Assembly: GCA_016932115.1 (NCBI GenBank)
Contig: JAFGDM010000152.1
Span: 1-52,039 of the forward strand
Direction of reading: 5' to 3'
Source of the DNA: Deltaproteobacteria bacterium
GTDB taxonomy: Bacteria; Desulfobacterota; DSM-4660; Desulfatiglandales; HGW-15
Length of the DNA stretch: 52,039 bases
This document shows positions 11,338-19,997 of the stretch, piece after piece. Under the pieces are notes generated by a model that searched no databases, was not told where the DNA came from, and was given only the letters and a program-made list of their open reading frames with translations. The position numbers and the translations under genes are program-made. How positions within the stretch are numbered: position 1 is the stretch's first letter; each line of letters begins with the position of its first letter.

Positions 11338-11406
11338 AAAATACCTTGATAGTTTGCAACAAAGGTTTTGATATACCCATTTCGAGAAAAGGGAGGATTG
11401 GATCTG

Positions 11407-13023
11407 ATGAAAGCAAGCGACCTTGATCTCCGGAATCTTTTATCCTTTAATCCCGGAGGCGGTATTATTCAATTGATGGGGGATCGTGTCATTTTGCTTG
11501 ATGTGGTTGCTATGGGCCTCTTTCGCAGAGAACTGATTAACAGCCTCGGCTTCTCTGCGGCACGGAACATCCTGACGCGTTTTGGATACGCACACGGATG
11601 GCTCATCGCCGACAAGTTGGCCACCAATTATCCGGATCTGGCTAAAGAACCGTCATACGGACCTGTATTGCACATGTTGCAAGGAGTGGTTGATGTCAAG
11701 GAATTCAAGTCCACTGTGATCGGTGATCCACTTTATCACGTGACCTCTATCTGGGACAATTCCTACGAAGCAGAGCAGCATGTCCTTCAATTTGGCATAG
11801 CAAACGAGCCGGTATGTTGGACTCTGACCGGCTACGTCAGTGGATACAGTAGTCGCATTAGTGGTCGAGAGACCTATTGTATTGAGCACAAGTGCCGAGG
11901 AAAAGGTGATGCGCTCTGTCACATCGAAAGCCGTTCTAGGGAGGATTGGGGAGAAGCTATAGATGATCAACTGCTCTTCTTCCAAGAAGAAACTATAGAC
12001 GGCATACTCAGGGACATAGTCGCTAAACTTCGCCGTTCCGAGAGGCGTTTGTCAAAGCTCAAGAAGCTTATCGACAGCGACATATACCCACCGGGTATAA
12101 TAGCAAATAGCCCGGCTATGCAGCATGTCCTGGGTATTGCGAAACGTGCTGCAAAAGTCGACTCTACTGTTCTGATAACCGGGGAAAGCGGTGTCGGAAA
12201 AGAAATGATTGCACGATTCATTCATGATGAATCATCGCGAGCGGGCCGACCCTTTGTGGCCGTCAACTGCAGTGCCATTGCGGAGACACTTTTGGAAAGT
12301 GAGTTTTTCGGGCATATAAAAGGAGCATTTACCGGTGCAGATCGTGACCGTGTAGGCCTTTTTGAAGCTGCGAACGGCGGTACAATATTCCTCGATGAAA
12401 TCGGAGAGATGCCTACAGGCACCCAAACAAAGCTTTTGCGAACTCTGCAAGAAAAACAAATAAGGCGCGTGGGGGAGAGCAAGACTCGTCCTGTTGACAC
12501 CAAAGTTATCGCCGCCACAAATTGCGATTTAGCAAAAGAGATCGAATCTGGTCGATTCCGACAGGACCTATTTTACCGTCTGTGCGTTATCGAGCTCGAA
12601 GTCGTGCCGCTTCGCGATCGGGTTGAGGATATCTTACCACTGGCACGCTTTTTCCTGGGTAAAACTACCGAAAAAATGGGGCGACCGGTGAATGGATTTT
12701 CTCCAGCCGCCATCGAGCATCTTTTGATTTATAACTGGCCCGGCAATGTGCGCGAACTTCATAACGTGATCGAACGGGCTGTAGCCCTGTGTTCGACAAG
12801 TCAAATCCAATTGGAGGATTTACCTAAAGCCCTCCGGAAGGGCATACCCAAACCCAAGAGCGATGACGATATCTATCCTCTTTCAGAGCTTGAACGGAAA
12901 TATATTTTGGCGACACTGGAAATTACAAAAAACGACAAAAGATTAGCAGCACGCAAATTGAATATAGGCCTCACTTCCCTTTATCGAAAATTGAGAGAGT
13001 ACGAAGCTAATGTCTCTGTGTGA
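11407..13023 (+). CDS. Sigma-54-dependent transcriptional activator with a XylR/DmpR-type N-terminal sensor (XylR_N + V4R)
   Basis: The N-terminus aligns by eye with DmpR/XylR (RVILLDVVAMGLFRRELINSLG, EPVCWTLTGYVSGYSS, CRGKGDALC). AAA+ core with GESGVGKE, GAFTGA and ESEFFGH. C-terminal Fis-type HTH. ATG 11407 follows GGGAGGA; the track starts at TTG 11368. Confidence 0.9.
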   Translation: MKASDLDLRNLLSFNPGGGIIQLMGDRVILLDVVAMGLFRRELINSLGFSAARNILTRFGYAHGWLIADKLATNYPDLAKEPSYGPVLHMLQGVVDVKEFKSTVIGDPLYHVTSIWDNSYEAEQHVLQFGIANEPVCWTLTGYVSGYSSRISGRETYCIEHKCRGKGDALCHIESRSREDWGEAIDDQLLFFQEETIDGILRDIVAKLRRSERRLSKLKKLIDSDIYPPGIIANSPAMQHVLGIAKRAAKVDSTVLITGESGVGKEMIARFIHDESSRAGRPFVAVNCSAIAETLLESEFFGHIKGAFTGADRDRVGLFEAANGGTIFLDEIGEMPTGTQTKLLRTLQEKQIRRVGESKTRPVDTKVIAATNCDLAKEIESGRFRQDLFYRLCVIELEVVPLRDRVEDILPLARFFLGKTTEKMGRPVNGFSPAAIEHLLIYNWPGNVRELHNVIERAVALCSTSQIQLEDLPKALRKGIPKPKSDDDIYPLSELERKYILATLEITKNDKRLAARKLNIGLTSLYRKLREYEANVSV

Positions 13024-13074: not shown

Positions 13075-13365
13075 CTACTCTTGGTCGTCGCCTGGCTGAT
13101 TATATGCCTGAATCAAATCCGCAACCACCGTTTGAATTTGCTCCACGCTGGTAAGCATGAACATGGGTACATCAGGCAATTCAGATAAGTCGGCGCAAGC
13201 CCGCGGGCATCCCTGGACAACTATAACCGCCTCGGCTTCACCCGAATCCACCGTGACCCATTCCACACGGTTTCCCAACTTTTCTTTCAACTCATTTGTC
13301 GCCTCTCTCCGATTATACTGCGGGTTGCATCCCCCGCAGTATTTCAGTGCGATTTTATTCCACAC
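13075..13365 (-). CDS. Small Cys-rich protein (CxxC...CxxxC); possible thioredoxin-like Fe-S/metal-binding or CGGC-domain protein
   Basis: 96-aa ORF with a GTG start that overlaps the upstream gene by 11 nt. It contains YCGGCNP and QGCPRAC. No strong SD. Confidence 0.5.
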   Translation of the reverse strand: MWNKIALKYCGGCNPQYNRREATNELKEKLGNRVEWVTVDSGEAEAVIVVQGCPRACADLSELPDVPMFMLTSVEQIQTVVADLIQAYNQPGDDQE

Positions 13366-14800
13366 CGGCTAGCTTCTTGGCAGCCCGGATCTTCTCCCGC
13401 ATGTTGATCCGCCTACCGATCATGATCCGTTGAGCTTGAGGTGAACCGGCTCCATGCATAGATTCAGTTAGGTAACCCACGGCTGCGGTCCCTAGGGTCA
13501 GGTTTTCTATAAGCCTCAGAATCCGGAGGCGATTCTCCATCGGTATGCCGTCTTTGGCCTTGAAGTACTTCTTCAGCAAATGGCCTACCTCCCCAGACGA
13601 GAAGTCCGCTTCCGCGGGCATGGTCACCATGAGCCCACCGGCGATATCCTGAGCCAGTCGCGAGATCTCGTATGGAAACCGGGTGACATTGTGTTTGTGG
13701 ACATTAGCCAATAAAATGTCCACGCAGTAAGTGCCGCTTGGTTCCTGATGCCCTTCCGAAGCACAGGCAATGCATCCGCAGTACAGCGTTTCATTTAAAT
13801 GGTTCATTTCAACAATCTTGTCTTTGATATGGGATGCCTTCTCGACTCCGATATATTCCGCAGATGCCTGAGCGGCGCCTATGAGTACGTCCCCTACTCC
13901 GACCTTGCAAGCATAGCTCTGCCTATGGTAGGCGGCGAACAGTTCCACCAAGCGGCCGGCAAAATCGTATTCCCTGTACATAAAAAGTCGTTCCCAGGGA
14001 ACAAAAACGTCTTCAAATATAACAAGAGCTTCATGGCCGCCGAACATTATGTTCCCCTGGTCTCTCTTCCCCGGTTCAAGCTTTCTGGTGTCGCAGGATT
14101 GCCGCCCCATGACGTAAGTGATGCCCTCGGCATCTGAAGGCAGGGCAAATGAAACAGCCCAATCGGCGTCATCCGGCCCCATGGCTTGGGTAGGCATAAC
14201 TAGGATCTCATGGCTGTTCACCGCTCCGGTCTGATGTGCTTTGGCCCCTCGGACTACAATACCTTCCTTGCGCTTTTCAACGACGTGCAGGAAGGCATCG
14301 GGATCAGGCTGCTTGTGGGGAGGCAGACTGCGGTCGCCTTTCGGGTCGGTCATGGCACCATCCACGGTCAGGTCATTGATTTGCACATATCTCAAATAGT
14401 TGAGTAAACGTTGATTATATTTCGTAGCGTATTTCAAGTCGATGTCGTAAGTAATTATCGACAAGGCATTTAAAGCATCCATGCCCACACAACGTTGAAA
14501 ACAACACCCTGTCTCCCGCCCAAGTAGGCGGCCCATTTTACTCTTTTTAAGGAGATCCTCCCGGTTTTGGTGAATATGAGTGAAACGGTTTATCTTTTCT
14601 CCGGTCAGATGACTCCGGACTGTCATCAGGTCCTCGTGTTCAGGGTCATGGGCCAGTTCATAGGTCTTGGCCACCGCCAGCGCCGACGGCCTGATAATGA
14701 GGTCATCCACCGGATTTGATACCCGTCGGCCGAACATGTATACCTTCAGGTTAAGTTTCCTCAGGCTGTCAAGGTACTCTTCAGCAGTCATCAACGGCAT
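13355..14800 (-). CDS. 4-hydroxybutyryl-CoA dehydratase / vinylacetyl-CoA isomerase family protein (AbfD/HpaB fold)
   Basis: The N-terminus MPLMTAEEYLDSLRKLNLKVYMFG is typical of the family. Candidate [4Fe-4S] ligands GCCFQRC and YHRQSYAC are present. ATG 14800 is preferred over TTG 14818. Confidence 0.8.
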   Translation of the reverse strand: MPLMTAEEYLDSLRKLNLKVYMFGRRVSNPVDDLIIRPSALAVAKTYELAHDPEHEDLMTVRSHLTGEKINRFTHIHQNREDLLKKSKMGRLLGRETGCCFQRCVGMDALNALSIITYDIDLKYATKYNQRLLNYLRYVQINDLTVDGAMTDPKGDRSLPPHKQPDPDAFLHVVEKRKEGIVVRGAKAHQTGAVNSHEILVMPTQAMGPDDADWAVSFALPSDAEGITYVMGRQSCDTRKLEPGKRDQGNIMFGGHEALVIFEDVFVPWERLFMYREYDFAGRLVELFAAYHRQSYACKVGVGDVLIGAAQASAEYIGVEKASHIKDKIVEMNHLNETLYCGCIACASEGHQEPSGTYCVDILLANVHKHNVTRFPYEISRLAQDIAGGLMVTMPAEADFSSGEVGHLLKKYFKAKDGIPMENRLRILRLIENLTLGTAAVGYLTESMHGAGSPQAQRIMIGRRINMREKIRAAKKLAGVE

Positions 14801-14827
14801 GGTGTAACCGCCTTTCAAAAAACATGA

Positions 14828-15721
14828 TTATACCGACAGTGCAGCTTGGCTGTGCGCGCATTTATCTTGAATTCCGGCCCATTCGCGATCGACCCACTCT
14901 TGAAAATCAACCCTTCCTTCCAAAGAAAGTCCCTTGAACCGGCCTTGAAGATCAAGATATTCATCTATCGGTATTTTAACAGGCATCGGGTTGATTTTCC
15001 ACTCCAGACCGCCAAATATCTCATATAAAGGAAATACACGGCTTTCCACCGCCTTGCGCGCCACTTCTAAGGTAAGCTGGGTTTCATGACGCCACCCGGT
15101 GGGGCAAGGAGCTAAAAGATGGATGAAACGCATCCCGCTCAAGTCCTTGGCCTTACGAACCTTGTTCATGACATCGTAGGGATAGCCTAAAGAGGTTGAA
15201 GCTGCATAGGTTATCCGGTGAGCGGCCATTATTTCCATGATATTCTTCTTGGGCTCCCGTTTCAGGGCTCCAGCCGGAGTAGTAGTCGTCCAGCAACCCC
15301 GGGGTGTGGCAGATGATCTCTGAATACCTGTGTTCATATAGGCCTCATTGTCATAGCAGACATAAATCATGTCTACGCCTTTTTCGGCGGCACCGCTAAG
15401 AGCTTGTAACCCGATATCGAAGGTCCCGCCATCACCTGCCCAACCCAGTACCGTATCTCTCCGGCCTTGCCTGTCCAGGGAAGCCCTAACACCAGAAGCG
15501 GTAGCAGCGGTAGTCGCGAAGGGAACCGACATCACAGGCACCTTAAGTGTGGTGCTGGGATACAGCCCAACAAAAGTCGGCCAGCACCCGGCAGGCATAA
15601 CCACCACAGTGTTTTCTCCCAAAGCCTCCAGGACATAGCGCATGGCTAGGGATGCCCCACAGCCGGGACAACCCATATGTCCGGGAGTCAAAAGATCCTT
15701 TTGAAAAACACTTTTGGTCAT
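14828..15721 (-). CDS. 2-oxoacid:ferredoxin oxidoreductase beta subunit (TPP-binding)
   Basis: GCPGCG and GDGG TPP motifs. ATGA overlap with the alpha subunit stop, and GGAGGT before ATG 15721. Confidence 0.85.
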   Translation of the reverse strand: MTKSVFQKDLLTPGHMGCPGCGASLAMRYVLEALGENTVVVMPAGCWPTFVGLYPSTTLKVPVMSVPFATTAATASGVRASLDRQGRRDTVLGWAGDGGTFDIGLQALSGAAEKGVDMIYVCYDNEAYMNTGIQRSSATPRGCWTTTTPAGALKREPKKNIMEIMAAHRITYAASTSLGYPYDVMNKVRKAKDLSGMRFIHLLAPCPTGWRHETQLTLEVARKAVESRVFPLYEIFGGLEWKINPMPVKIPIDEYLDLQGRFKGLSLEGRVDFQEWVDREWAGIQDKCAHSQAALSV

Positions 15722-16878
15722 ACGATTACCTCCACCCAAGTAGACTCGCCCAAAAAGACACTATCTCCCGTTCCGGAAAGGGCTTGGCGTACCATTTCAA
15801 TCAATTTTTCAGGAGTTATATCGTTGCCGCCGATTCCCGCCACAAACCCATGCACCTGGGCAAAAGAACGTCCGTACAAACAGGCCTTTATTTCTTGAGC
15901 AACTATGCCTTCAGCTCCAAAGGAAATATCTCGATCAAGAACCACAATATGTTTGGCCCCCTTGACCGCTTCGGTAAAACTGCGCTTGGGAAAAGGTCGT
16001 ATCAGCCCCAACCTTAGACTACCCGCGGCCACTCCCTCACGCCGCAGACTTTGTGCCGCTAGAAGCGCCGCCCCTCCCGCAGTACCGATGGTGACGATGA
16101 CCACCTCAGCATCTTCAGACATATAGGCTTCAACAGTTGGGTGTAATCTACCAAATGCATTGGCAAAATCATTCGCAGCTTCCAGCCAGGCTTCTTCCAC
16201 AGCCAGCATGTCTTTCTGACGGCGGCACTTCAGAGAAGCATAAAGATCCGCTCCGCACACCGCGCCGTATGTACTTGGAGCATCAGGGTCCACCTTTTCG
16301 GCAGGTTGGTAAGCAGGCAAATACCGGTCTACTTCCATTTGAGAGGGTATATCCACAATTTCGGAGGTATGGGTCAGATAGAAACCGTCCAGATTGATCA
16401 TAATCGGAAGCATCGCTTGCTCGGCCACTTTGTAGGCAATCAGGATGCTATCCAAAACATCCTGAACATCACTGCAATAGAGCTGTATCCAGCCCGTATC
16501 CCGCTGGGACAACGAGTCGGTGTGGTCACAGTAAAGGTTCCAAGGTGGCGACAAGGCCCGGTTGGCATTCAACATGACTATCGGGAGTCGTCCGCCGGCA
16601 GCGTGATGCAACATCTCGTGCATCAAGGCCAAACCATGCGAAGAGGTGGCCGTAAAAGTCCGGCAACCGGTGGCTGACGCTCCCACGCAGGCGGCCATGG
16701 CTGAATGTTCAGATTCAACAGACAAAAATTCGGCTTCCAATTCGCCCGTAGCCACGTAATTTGATAATTCCTCCACCGTTACGGTTTGTGGCGTAATTGG
16801 ATAAGCAGCCACCACCTGCACCCTGGCCAGAACAGCTGCCAAAGCGGCTGCCTCAGTGCCCATGATTACTTTCTTCAT
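15718..16878 (-). CDS. 2-oxoacid:ferredoxin oxidoreductase alpha subunit
   Basis: MKKVIMGTEAAALAA...AYPITPQT is typical of PorA/VorA/KorA. ATGA overlap at 16875-16878 with the upstream gene. Confidence 0.85.
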   Translation of the reverse strand: MKKVIMGTEAAALAAVLARVQVVAAYPITPQTVTVEELSNYVATGELEAEFLSVESEHSAMAACVGASATGCRTFTATSSHGLALMHEMLHHAAGGRLPIVMLNANRALSPPWNLYCDHTDSLSQRDTGWIQLYCSDVQDVLDSILIAYKVAEQAMLPIMINLDGFYLTHTSEIVDIPSQMEVDRYLPAYQPAEKVDPDAPSTYGAVCGADLYASLKCRRQKDMLAVEEAWLEAANDFANAFGRLHPTVEAYMSEDAEVVIVTIGTAGGAALLAAQSLRREGVAAGSLRLGLIRPFPKRSFTEAVKGAKHIVVLDRDISFGAEGIVAQEIKACLYGRSFAQVHGFVAGIGGNDITPEKLIEMVRQALSGTGDSVFLGESTWVEVIV

Positions 16879-18023
16879 GGCAAGTACTCCATATTCATTA
16901 CTCCTCGGGGACACTCGTAAGAGCATATCCCGCAACCTTTACAATGATAAAGATCGATTATTATTTTACCCTCGTCTTCATCCAACCGGCAGCACGCATC
17001 AGGGCAGGCTATAATGCAGCTTTGACATAAGTTGCAGGTTCCACAGGACAAACACCGAGCGGCCTCGGTAGCAGCGGCTTCATCAGGACCGCCTTTCGCC
17101 CTTTCCAGCAAATCAATAGTTTTTTGGTCCGGCAACCTGCTGAATTTCAGTTCTCCTTTATCCAAAGCAGTAAATGGTTGCGATTCTTCAGTAAAGGCAG
17201 TGCCAAGGATCTGCTCAGTTTGATTGGACGCCCACCTTCCCAAAGCCACAGCTTCTGCCACCTGTACTACCTTGAAACCGGCACCGCCTTCTTTATTTTC
17301 AACATCCAGGTACTGGCCAGCTGAACTAGCAAACTTTTCCAAGGCCCGAGCCTCTGGACTCTCGCTTGGATAAGCTGTCCGATCCAATAGCACCAGATCG
17401 TACTTCCTAGCTCTCACTTCCGAGGCATTTGTTTCTATGTCGAGGCCACTGACCGAGATCAGCCTCCTTATCTCTCTTTCCAGCACTTCGGAGGATAGTC
17501 TCCCTTCCGGTAAATCTCTCAAAAAACCCCCCAAACGGTCTGAAGGTTCCAAGATTGTGATCAAATAACCCTTCATAGCCAAAAAATATGCGGCGGAAAG
17601 CCCGGCTGGCCCGGAACCGCAAACAGCAATCTTTCGGCCCTTGGCAGCTCGTCTAGTTAGCCTGGGTATCCCGCCCTTATCCGCCGTAAGACGTTCCAAA
17701 TCCTTTATCGAAACGGCACTATCCAGATCTTTTCTCACGCATGCGGTCTGGCAGGGGTGATAACACAAACGCCCCGTTATGCCGGGCATAGGATTGACCT
17801 CAAGCAGCCTGACTAAGGCCGTTCCCCAGTCACCCTCCAGAACGGCTTGAATAAATTGGGGAATGGGTTGACCTATGGGACAACCTCTTATACAAGGCGC
17901 GATCTTGTTCATCCACACCGGGGTTAAGAGGCGCCATGTCCCCGTCTTGTTCCAAGTCATATCCTCAATGGTCAAAGGCATCACCGGTAGTTGCTTGATC
18001 GATTCGATCTTGCATTTCTCCAT
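16875..18023 (-). CDS. Fusion protein: GltD-like N-terminal Fe-S domain + one FAD/NAD dinucleotide fold + C-terminal 2x[4Fe-4S] ferredoxin (OFOR delta-subunit position)
   Basis: CIRGCPIGQPIP...CYHPCQTAC; KIAVCGSGPAGLSAAYFLA; C-terminal CLSCGTCNLCQSCIIACP and CKGCGICSYECP. It sits between the gamma and alpha genes, where porD normally lies. Confidence 0.7.
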   Translation of the reverse strand: MEKCKIESIKQLPVMPLTIEDMTWNKTGTWRLLTPVWMNKIAPCIRGCPIGQPIPQFIQAVLEGDWGTALVRLLEVNPMPGITGRLCYHPCQTACVRKDLDSAVSIKDLERLTADKGGIPRLTRRAAKGRKIAVCGSGPAGLSAAYFLAMKGYLITILEPSDRLGGFLRDLPEGRLSSEVLEREIRRLISVSGLDIETNASEVRARKYDLVLLDRTAYPSESPEARALEKFASSAGQYLDVENKEGGAGFKVVQVAEAVALGRWASNQTEQILGTAFTEESQPFTALDKGELKFSRLPDQKTIDLLERAKGGPDEAAATEAARCLSCGTCNLCQSCIIACPDACCRLDEDEGKIIIDLYHCKGCGICSYECPRGVMNMEYLP

Positions 18024-18799: not shown

Positions 18800-19891
18800 T
18801 CAGTCTATCTGATATTTGGTGCCTGGTCCGTATTCCAAACTGGTGCGCCAATCCACACGCTCCCTATTATCCGGGTACCGGCACCGCCCTGCATCCATAT
18901 CATCCGGATGGATATATCGGGTTCCCGGCAGCAAGCTGACAACCTTCATCTTGGGGCGGCCTGATTCCTTATTCTTACGTTCCACTATGTCCTCCAGGTA
19001 TGCCGGATCTTCATAGCAATTGGCCCAATTGTCATGATGCATGGGCAGTATTACTTTTGTTCCCAAAGCCTCGGCCACTCGCCACAGGTCCCAGGGAGAC
19101 ATCTTGTCGGTATAGCCGGGAGCGTTGTTACCCATAGCCATGGAAACGACGTCGATTTTGTATTTATCGCCCACCATCTTGTAAGCGTTATCGTAAAGCG
19201 AGTCCCCCAAAAAGGCGATGTTGCCTCCTTGCGTGTTGAAAATATATGCTACCGCCACTTCCGAGAAGGGAGGCGGGGTATCAAAGCCGGTCTTGGTTGC
19301 TATGATGTCATAATTTGGAGCAAAATCGATCTTCATATCTTCGATCTGAACGCTTTCTCCGACTTTGGCCACGATGAGTCGATCATCAGGGATACCCATG
19401 TTCTTCTTCATGCGGCGAGCTGCTTCGGGCGGCGCAATAAACTTGCATTTGGAGGTTTGCAGGGCCGCGCTGATAGTATAGAAGTCCATGTGGTCCTGAT
19501 GATGATGGGTCACGCAAACCGCATCAATCCTCTTGAATTTCCAGGGATCTATGACCATGGGGTGAATACGCATCCACCACAGCTTGTCGGCCCCGCTGGT
19601 CCGGCAGACACCGCAGTAGGACCGATCGGTAAAGAGACTGGGACCGGCATAGTTGTCAATCAGAAAAACCGCCCCAGCCTGGCTCTTAATGGCGCAGGAC
19701 ATAGCCCCAAAATACCACAGAGCTCCGGTGCCGGGCTTTACCTCAAATTGGTCTATTTCATAATTGAGGTAAGCTCCCCATTCAGGGAAAACTTCCTTCA
19801 GCCAGATGTCTCGATTCATCTCGCGGGGCAAACCAATGGTGCCCCCGTCCATAACTCCTCGTTCATCATACTTGACGACCTTTTCACTCAT
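18800..19891 (-). CDS. UlaG-family metallo-beta-lactamase-fold lactonase/hydrolase
   Basis: Aligns by eye along its whole length with E. coli UlaG. Matching segments: FPEWGAYLNYEIDQFEVKPGTGALWYFG, IDAVCVTHHHQDHMD, YTDKMSPWD, PMHHDNWAN. ATG 19891 is preceded by AGGAGGG. Confidence 0.8.
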   Translation of the reverse strand: MSEKVVKYDERGVMDGGTIGLPREMNRDIWLKEVFPEWGAYLNYEIDQFEVKPGTGALWYFGAMSCAIKSQAGAVFLIDNYAGPSLFTDRSYCGVCRTSGADKLWWMRIHPMVIDPWKFKRIDAVCVTHHHQDHMDFYTISAALQTSKCKFIAPPEAARRMKKNMGIPDDRLIVAKVGESVQIEDMKIDFAPNYDIIATKTGFDTPPPFSEVAVAYIFNTQGGNIAFLGDSLYDNAYKMVGDKYKIDVVSMAMGNNAPGYTDKMSPWDLWRVAEALGTKVILPMHHDNWANCYEDPAYLEDIVERKNKESGRPKMKVVSLLPGTRYIHPDDMDAGRCRYPDNRERVDWRTSLEYGPGTKYQID

Positions 19892-19997
19892 TTTTCCCTC
19901 CTGCAGATCAATTATTCTAGGCAATCTTCATTTAAATAATCTTTTTCCTTATGCTGACTTCGGAAACGTCATAATCATGCCTCCGGTCAGATCTTTC

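Follow-up and report, generated by a model that had tools for sequence, protein, structure and literature searches.

A 382-residue protein encoded in the 52,039-nucleotide stretch of DNA analysed here (positions 1 to 52,039 of contig JAFGDM010000152.1, assembly GCA_016932115.1, from a Deltaproteobacteria bacterium; hereafter the window) occupies the place of the delta subunit, PorD, in the operon of a four-subunit 2-oxoacid:ferredoxin oxidoreductase (OFOR). We call this protein short delta. By profile matches it is a PorD split by a module of the GltD/NfnB flavoprotein type, and this module lacks the domain that binds reduced nicotinamide adenine dinucleotide (phosphate), NAD(P)H. Short delta is a real, conserved and derived variant of an OFOR architecture that is catalogued but unstudied. 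We propose, with a probability of about 0.55, that it works as a four-cluster wire without an NAD(P)+ outlet, which would deliver its electrons to ferredoxin or a different one-electron partner, whether or not a flavin terminates the path.

A GltD/NfnB-like module inserted into PorD

Short delta begins with the N-terminal arm of PorD, whose residues N25, T27, G28, W30, R31 and P35 do not vary among 60 sequences, and ends with the PorD ferredoxin domain (Table 1). When residues 1-40 and 328-382 were joined in silico, the resulting 95-residue sequence matched the TIGR02179 PorD_KorD model over positions 8-74 of 78 with 60.6 bits (curated cut-off 60.05 bits), and it also matched positions 14-101 of the 105 in the VorD PRK09623 model. 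The intact protein scored 35.3 bits against TIGR02179 and matched only positions 26-74 of the model. The excised join thus restores the PorD match, indicating that PorD is split by a 287-residue insert. As judged from these profile matches, the module is an insertion between the PorD arm and the two-cluster ferredoxin domain. A simple end-to-end fusion at the N terminus is ruled out by the presence of the PorD arm at residues 1-40 and by the match of the excised join.

Pfam analysis of short delta detected Fer4_20 at residues 42-116 and Fer4/Fer4_9 at residues 329-378. Between them, only the start of a Rossmann fold was recognized, at residues 131-166 (NAD_binding_8), and the match to Pyr_redox_2 was limited to 30 residues (131-160, 19.6 bits). 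The sole G.G..[GA] motif lies at residue 136. A second Rossmann domain for NAD(P)H, with its GGGNxAxD motif, was not found in short delta by Pfam, by motif scanning or by alignment to the long forms of the family. In that alignment, the place of the NADPH domain and the GD strand of the long relatives is occupied by the deletion scar at residues 223-250.

Comparison with known structures gave the same picture. A family profile run against Protein Data Bank sequences and a Foldseek search with the AlphaFold2 (AF2) model both ranked 9bov_A, 9n5u_A and 8oh5_C first, followed by NfnB, GltD and DPD. Residues 98-266 of 9bov_A align with residues 39-204 of short delta and residues 481-569 with residues 261-336, and about 160 residues of 9bov_A, including its second Rossmann fold, have no counterpart in short delta. 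The AF2 model has a mean predicted local distance difference test (pLDDT) score of 73; the score reaches or exceeds about 90 for the greater part of residues 60-275, in particular of 110-240 and 251-270, and is 82-88 in the helices at 300-309 and 315-321.

An earlier examination of the DNA by a model that saw the letters and a list of open reading frames (ORFs), the sequence-only reading, had described a 382-residue ORF in the porD position, with a GltD/NfnB-like first part, a single GxGxxG/A fold and no NAD(P)H domain. Our results bear this description out: the frame is intact and lies between the gamma and alpha genes, the nearest families in NCBIfam and Foldseek are of the expected kind, and the structural comparison that it had proposed identifies the NADPH domain as the missing part, the middle of 9bov_A-type chains being unmatched. 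Its estimate of 100-150 missing residues correctly indicated a domain-sized gap but was too low, the actual size being about 160 (against 9bov_A) to 196 residues (against a 578-residue paralogue, see below). Its porD fusion is correct in that a GltD-like module and a ferredoxin share one protein; the module is not appended to PorD, however, but inserted into it. Likewise, both Fe-S regions that it had pointed out are present, with differences in detail: the N-terminal Cys-rich domain has a rearranged set of ligands, part of which follows the Rossmann part, and the C-terminal 2x[4Fe-4S] ferredoxin is not canonical, because its first motif has six Cys rather than four.

Fe-S ligands

In an alignment of 60 short-form with 111 long-form sequences, fifteen Cys and Glu110 are conserved throughout (100%), apart from C327, which reaches 98% in the short set; this pattern supports the suggestion of the sequence-only reading that such a fusion would wire extra Fe-S clusters into the oxidoreductase. 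The ferredoxin domain contributes C330, C333, C336 and C340-P in its first motif and C361, C364, C367 and C371-P in its second. Counted with C324 and C327, the first motif has six Cys in the pattern C324-x2-C-x2-C-x2-C-x2-C-x3-CP, and this six-Cys motif is present in nearly all of the 149 relatives scanned.

A complete ligand set for two NfnB-type [4Fe-4S] clusters (seven Cys and one Glu) is also present, consisting of C44, C48, C87, C91, C95, E110, C324 and C327. The order of these ligands is rearranged, with the 'EAxRCxxCG' pair placed after the Rossmann part, as in StnC and NfnABC. In the DPD structure, one cluster is held by C79, C82, C87 and C140 and the other by C91, C130, C136 and Q156. 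E110 of short delta aligns in the profile alignment with K170 of StnC, which is the fourth ligand of the flavin-proximal cluster, a role played by Glu in NfnB (PMC10482914).

By analogy with DPD, we infer four clusters. In the ferredoxin domain, cluster A would be bound by C330, C333, C336 and C371 and cluster B by C361, C364, C367 and C340. Of the NfnB-type pair, the distal cluster would be bound by C324, C327, C44 and C95, and the proximal cluster by C48, C87, C91 and E110. In the six-Cys motif, a ligand of the distal cluster and one of a PorD cluster are only three residues apart, which should hold these two clusters within electron-transfer distance of each other.

Table 1 Features of short delta and of its surroundings on the window. 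All alpha and beta profile scores lie under the equivalog cut-offs.
Feature	Position	Strand	Evidence or remarks
Short delta, 382 aa, porD slot	16875..18023	-	ORF with intact frame
Residues 1-40, PorD N-terminal arm, N25-x-T-G-x-W-R...P35	17904..18023	-	excised-join match to PorD_KorD
Residues 41-116, GltD/NfnB/DPD-type Fe-S domain with C44, C48, C87, C91, C95, E110	17676..17903	-	PF14691 Fer4_20, 60.3 bits
Residues 128-273, FAD-binding Rossmann remnant	17205..17642	-	G136-S-G-P-A-G141, E159, G165-G166, R175, D214, last helix 251-273
Residues 223-250, short variable helix-and-loop, deletion scar	17274..17357	-	mean top-residue frequency 0.39; 0 of 28 columns at 90% or more
Residues 274-316, variable linker back to the Fe-S part	17076..17204	-	mean top-residue frequency 0.37
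Residues 317-382 and stop, 'EAARC324LSC327G' then PorD ferredoxin domain	16875..17075	-	Fer4 at 329-378; PorD_KorD and PorD_Arch matches
porG-like gamma, 188 aa	18023..18589	-	PF01558 POR 119 bits; TIGR02175 PorC_KorC 168 bits
porA-like alpha, 386 aa from ATG at 16878	15718..16878	-	POR_N 232 bits, PFOR_II 91 bits, PorA_Arch 445 bits
porB-like beta, ~297 aa from ATG at 15721 (start inferred from homologue lengths of 292-295 aa)	14828..15721	-	TPP_enzyme_C; PRK11864 373 bits; PRK11865 341 bits
XylR/V4R sigma-54 activator gene	11368..13023		
AbfD-like gene (4-hydroxybutyryl-CoA dehydratase family)	13355..14818	-	
UlaG-like metallo-beta-lactamase-fold gene	18800..19924	-	

Origin of the short form by deletion

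The best NCBIfam match of short delta is NF009410/PRK12771 (566 model positions), which it matches with 219 bits, against a cut-off of 516 bits, in two stretches, residues 15-199 on model positions 21-208 and the C terminus; a control protein of the family (P0128) scored 525 bits. A HMMER search of 1.84 billion representatives yielded 404 relatives at E values of 1e-30 or better. Most of the 150 best matches are 520-610 residues long, or about 750 residues with the gamma subunit fused in front, and the short form was found in about a dozen of the representatives at 50% identity. The long forms have the same arm, the same Fe-S motifs and the same six-Cys motif, together with a complete NADPH domain and the GD motif.

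In a delta tree built on the shared columns, the short clade of the window is monophyletic on a long stem (support 1.0), and in the alpha-subunit tree the 25 short-form operons likewise form one clade (support 1.0). The short clade is conserved down to 37-39% identity and its alpha subunits have co-diverged with it. Given this history, a degenerate, purely structural relic, which the sequence-only reading had offered as one of two possible meanings, is unlikely for the protein as a whole.

The genome of the window, a 3.7-Mb metagenome-assembled genome that is 95% complete, offers a direct comparison. On another contig (C57, 4929-9238; locus L092) it carries a paralogous gamma-delta-alpha-beta operon whose delta is a long form of 578 residues with an intact NADPH domain, matching the full Pyr_redox_2 model with 107 bits and NF009410 end to end with 482 bits. 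In a BLASTP comparison, residues 14-199 of short delta aligned with residues 12-198 of this paralogue (40% identity) and residues 317-378 with residues 512-574 (43% identity); between these two collinear blocks, short delta is 196 residues shorter. Taken together, trees and alignments indicate that the short form is derived by deletion from the long NF009410 family, with a single origin for the clade of the window.

Other shortened proteins are scattered singly among the long ones in the delta tree, implying recurrent loss of the NADPH domain. Three proteins have PorG fused in front of an NADPH-less delta (P0126, 602 residues; P0229, 582 residues; P0264, 575 residues). P0126 falls inside the short clade of the window; P0229 and P0264 lie among the long forms, and by this placement may represent independent losses of the domain. 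The long-form operon on contig C57 adjoins a LarA-like gene and a TRAP transporter. A third arrangement occurs on contig C166 of the same genome (L088, 411-3409, minus strand), where separate genes encode the flavoprotein and the PorD-type ferredoxin half, in the order korB-like beta, gamma, a 464-residue GltD-like flavoprotein with an N-terminal ferredoxin motif, and a 98-residue delta-like protein that opens its Fe-S part with 'EEAGRCL'.

Distribution of the short form

The sequence-only reading had called for a survey of how widespread the fusion is. When 5.8 billion proteins were searched, the whole of short delta was covered at 39-73% identity by members of more than 120 clusters, 369-414 residues in length, and a scan of species genomes found the short form in 25 of them, all Thermodesulfobacteriota. 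The carriers belong to Syntrophobacteraceae, Desulfomonilaceae, Desulfarculaceae, Desulfobacteraceae, Syntrophaceae and Syntrophus, and Desulfohalobiaceae, and include the cultured Desulfosarcina alkanivorans PL12, whose orthologous operon lies at about 3,336,221-3,347,393 of NZ_AP021874.1. The gene order gamma-delta-alpha-beta was kept in each of the fetched short-form loci that we checked (26/26), and 55 columns are invariant across 60 short-form members. Source databases label these proteins 'NAD(P)-binding protein', '4Fe-4S binding protein' or 'oxidoreductase delta subunit'. A frameshift or misassembly joining two genes, against which the sequence-only reading had cautioned, is ruled out by the intact frame, the number of clusters of the same length, the 25 genomes and the kept operon order.

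Operon and genomic setting

The short delta gene lies between the gamma and alpha genes on the same strand. The gamma stop and the delta start overlap in TGATG and the delta stop and the alpha start in ATGA, an arrangement that indicates translational coupling. The porB-like beta subunit is predicted from its sequence to bind thiamine pyrophosphate (TPP) and one [4Fe-4S] cluster. In the window, the operon is part of a block that also holds genes of a liv-type transporter, iorAB, a ferredoxin gene, AOR, an AbfD-like gene and a XylR-type sigma-54 activator gene. This gene content points to a role of the operon in aryl- or branched-chain 2-oxoacid catabolism. Instead of the IclR-family regulator gene seen in many related loci (see below), the IOR/AOR block precedes the operon of the window, which stands back-to-back with the XylR/V4R sigma-54 activator gene.

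To describe the neighbourhood more broadly, we clustered the flanking ORFs of 27 short-form loci, the window counted. Recurrent neighbours were a gene for an IclR-family regulator (16/27), a UlaG-like metallo-beta-lactamase gene (7/27) and the AbfD-like gene (6/27), and the remaining recurrent clusters were antisense shadow ORFs. The IclR-type gene lies immediately upstream of gamma in its 16 loci (for example, at 4551-5426 of L002 and 3587-4393 of L021), a position that suggests that the short-form OFOR would be a substrate-induced catabolic enzyme. An extra redox partner gene recurring beside the operon was not found among these 27 loci. A supply of the missing domain by a nearby gene was also considered and rejected, as a stand-alone NADPH-domain gene is present in none of the 27 short-form operons.

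The AbfD-like gene adjoins short-form OFOR operons in five other genomes (L012, L019, L021, L022 and L025), directly after beta in four of them and before gamma in one. Its copies are 72-74% identical to that of the window, compared with 36-41% for delta in the same loci, and the short-form OFOR may be functionally paired with an AbfD-type radical dehydratase. The UlaG-like gene lies just upstream of gamma in the window and is 84-90% identical across the closer short-form loci (L001, L004, L005 and L007-L009), far above the OFOR subunits.

Electron path and the question of a flavin

We propose that a rearranged NfnB/GltD-like module was spliced into PorD between the arm and the two-cluster ferredoxin domain. 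The ancestral long form (about 560 residues, NF009410) would have had the complete module, with two [4Fe-4S] clusters, flavin adenine dinucleotide (FAD) and the NADPH domain, and is presumed to carry electrons from the oxoacid to NAD(P)+. In one lineage of Thermodesulfobacteriota, about 160-196 residues that comprise the NADPH domain and the GD strand were then lost by deletion, whereas all that is needed for four [4Fe-4S] clusters was spared. In the resulting enzyme, electrons would pass from TPP to the beta cluster, on to the two ferredoxin clusters of delta and from there to the two NfnB-type clusters. The Rossmann remnant would still bind a nucleotide that contains adenosine (FAD or a relic of the ADP/AMP type), hydride transfer to NAD(P)+ would be lost, and short delta probably cannot reduce NADP+. 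A protein carrier, for example ferredoxin, or some other one-electron partner would take over the electrons, and the net effect would be to return a pyridine-nucleotide-linked enzyme to low-potential electron output. The long-form operon kept by the same genome supports this proposal as a functional split, the lack of a recurrent partner gene beside the operon also counts for it, and the NADPH-less module that heads the NF045663 proteins provides a precedent.

The conservation of the Rossmann remnant bears on whether a flavin terminates this path. In the short clade, conservation is 100% for G136, G138 and G141, 98% for P139 and 98-100% for G165-G166, and 96% of the members have an acidic residue (Asp or Glu) at the end of strand 2, which is E159 in the window protein. 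These levels are on a par with those of the long family, in which FAD is required. Most of the independently shortened relatives also retain GxGxxG. The motif can drift when it is unneeded, as indicated by NF045663, where the site reads GSDLSS, GSGLSS, GGGLCG and GSGMSG in four examples, two of them off the consensus; its invariance in short delta therefore looks selected. It is probable, on this conservation, that the remnant still binds an adenosine-containing ligand. Non-bifurcating electron-transfer flavoproteins hold AMP where their bifurcating counterparts hold FAD, and the ADP-binding motifs alone cannot separate FAD from an AMP/ADP relic.

These conserved motifs also support the foremost alternative, namely that FAD is retained as an obligatory exit. 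Its isoalloxazine ring would be exposed by loss of the NADPH domain, and the electrons would go on to an acceptor other than a pyridine nucleotide, for example a docking protein, a quinone or free flavin. The invariance of the proximal cluster with its three Cys and one Glu, next to the flavin site, is in accordance with such an exit, and so is position 175, which is Lys in 68%, Arg in 10% and Gln in 10% of the short clade (Lys or Arg in 78%) and Arg in the window protein. This position aligns with R239 of StnC and R201 of NfnB, which lie near the flavin N5 (PMC10482914). However, the flavin side of the site has decayed. In the R-Y-G-I-P-x-x-R-L-P loop, conserved at 77-95% in the long forms except for the Tyr (40%), no R-Y-G-I-P residue exceeds 42% in the short forms, the Lys or Arg at position 175 being the exception to the decay of the loop. 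The GD motif is absent from them, and where the ATG motif would have its Ala they carry an invariant Asp214. This Asp belongs, with K251, R187, T83 and Q92, to a set of residues that are invariant or nearly so in the short clade only. Nor does any candidate acceptor gene recur beside the operon. We therefore give a redox-active FAD as the bound ligand slightly less than an even chance, and consider an obligatory flavin exit possible but rather unlikely.

Several points nevertheless weigh against our proposal of a four-cluster wire. The acceptor and the cofactor content are predictions. The AF2 model is confident for the core only; the arm and the ferredoxin domain have pLDDT values below 50, and the cluster of C324/C327 with C44/C95 is a candidate one. 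The basic residue kept at the N5-proximal position 175 fits a retained flavin. Finally, if electrons went to ferredoxin, there would be little apparent need for two extra clusters or for an invariant GxGxxG unless the insert blocks the usual exit, a consideration that favours a functional terminal cofactor.

It is improbable that the enzyme is still linked to NAD(P)+, with the nucleotide binding over an exposed flavin or a separate protein supplying the missing domain. Flavoenzymes can use NAD(P)H without a dedicated Rossmann domain for it, examples being OYE, NQO1, WrbA and nitroreductases, and R175 is present in the window protein. However, the clade shows little conservation in the loop bearing the N5 arginine, short delta has neither a second G.G..[GA] motif nor a Pyr_redox_2 match beyond 30 residues, none of the 27 short-form operons contains a stand-alone NADPH-domain gene, and the same genome has another operon, of the long form, for this task. 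The reading of the gene as decaying or artefactual (frameshift, misassembly or pseudogene), with an insert devoid of function, has only the poor conservation of residues 223-250 and 274-316 in its favour and is extremely improbable in view of the intact frame and translationally coupled gene boundaries, the more than 120 clusters of the same length at 39-73% identity, the 25 species genomes, the 55 invariant columns and the co-divergence of the alpha subunits.

Implications

A description of the short or the long delta fusion was not found in full-text literature searches. Reviews describe OFORs with one, two, four or five subunits, and the term 'glutamate synthase' is absent from a review of PFOR diversity of November 2026 (PMC13768988). 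The long form, a delta into which an NfnB-like module is built, occurs commonly in genomes, and the short clade represents a natural deletion experiment in which the clusters and the ADP-binding fold were kept and the NAD(P)H site was removed. The organisms that carry it, syntrophs and sulfate reducers, rely on low-potential electrons. The identity of the acceptor would tell whether they switch a catabolic OFOR between NAD(P)H output with the long form and ferredoxin-level output with the short form, and the cultured D. alkanivorans PL12 is a tractable source of the enzyme. If FAD did serve as the exit, the enzyme would represent a new class of 2-oxoacid:acceptor oxidoreductase in which a flavin serves a non-pyridine partner, and a natural 'NADPH-less NfnB' in which the pair of the three-Cys-plus-Glu cluster and the flavin could be studied alone.

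Comparison with known systems

Canonical PorD/VorD (TIGR02179; solved as 9bt4_G) shares with short delta the operon position, the arm and the two CxxCxxCxxxCP motifs. In comparison, short delta has the 287-residue insert, two more predicted clusters and the Rossmann remnant. Its closest relatives, the NF009410/PRK12771 'NAD(P)-binding proteins', are full-length OFOR delta subunits of about 540-610 residues with an inserted NfnB/GltD-like module. Common to both are the PorD arm, the C-x3-CP and C-x3-C-x3-C Fe-S motifs, the Glu ligand, the GSGPAGL FAD motif, the 'EAxRCxxCGxCxxCxxCxxxCP' motif, the second ferredoxin motif and the gamma-delta-alpha-beta operon. Short delta differs in the absence of about 196 residues, comprising the NADPH domain with GGGNxAxD and the GD strand, and in the degraded RYGIPxxRLP loop.

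Among proteins of known structure, StnC (8oh5) and the large subunits of NfnABC (9bov_A, 9n5u_A) are the most similar, with E values of 1e-13 to 1e-37. As in short delta, the C-x3-CP half comes first in these modules and 'EAxRCxxCG' follows the FAD domain, and two [4Fe-4S] clusters lie next to the flavin site, the arrangement predicted for short delta. As fourth ligand of the proximal cluster, a Glu is predicted in short delta, as in NfnB, where StnC has Lys. The StnC and NfnABC modules, which bind both FAD and NADPH, feed NuoG-like or HydBC-like partners, whereas short delta is a subunit of an OFOR and has no NADPH domain.

The NADPH-less module has a counterpart in NF045663 ('diclust_near_Sec', about 760-800 residues), whose model positions 15-318 are collinear with residues 39-340 of short delta, with the same NfnB-like module followed by RCxxC. 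This family exceeds its cut-off in 21 of 301 sampled genomes of the same phylum, and the members that we examined (L097-L100) are 778-851 residues long. Unlike short delta, NF045663 proteins are not OFOR subunits but continue into dicluster and CCG/HdrD-like domains, and they keep the canonical N-terminal Cys and the 'vFAGG' strand.

Phenylglyoxylate dehydrogenase PadEFGHI of Azoarcus/Aromatoleum, attributed to Hirsch et al. 1998, is reportedly an NADH-dependent OFOR joined to a GltD-like flavoprotein. The gamma, alpha and beta subunits of the window gave weak matches to the PadE, PadG and PadI models, but the operon does not belong to this group, as PadE scored 127 against a cut-off of 300, PadG 270 against 700, PadI 237 against 700, and PadF, with the excised delta, 41 against 150. 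Its setting is similar, beside IOR and AOR genes of aryl-acid catabolism. The Pad flavoprotein, however, is a separate and complete subunit that reduces NAD+, whereas in short delta a truncated module lies inside PorD itself.

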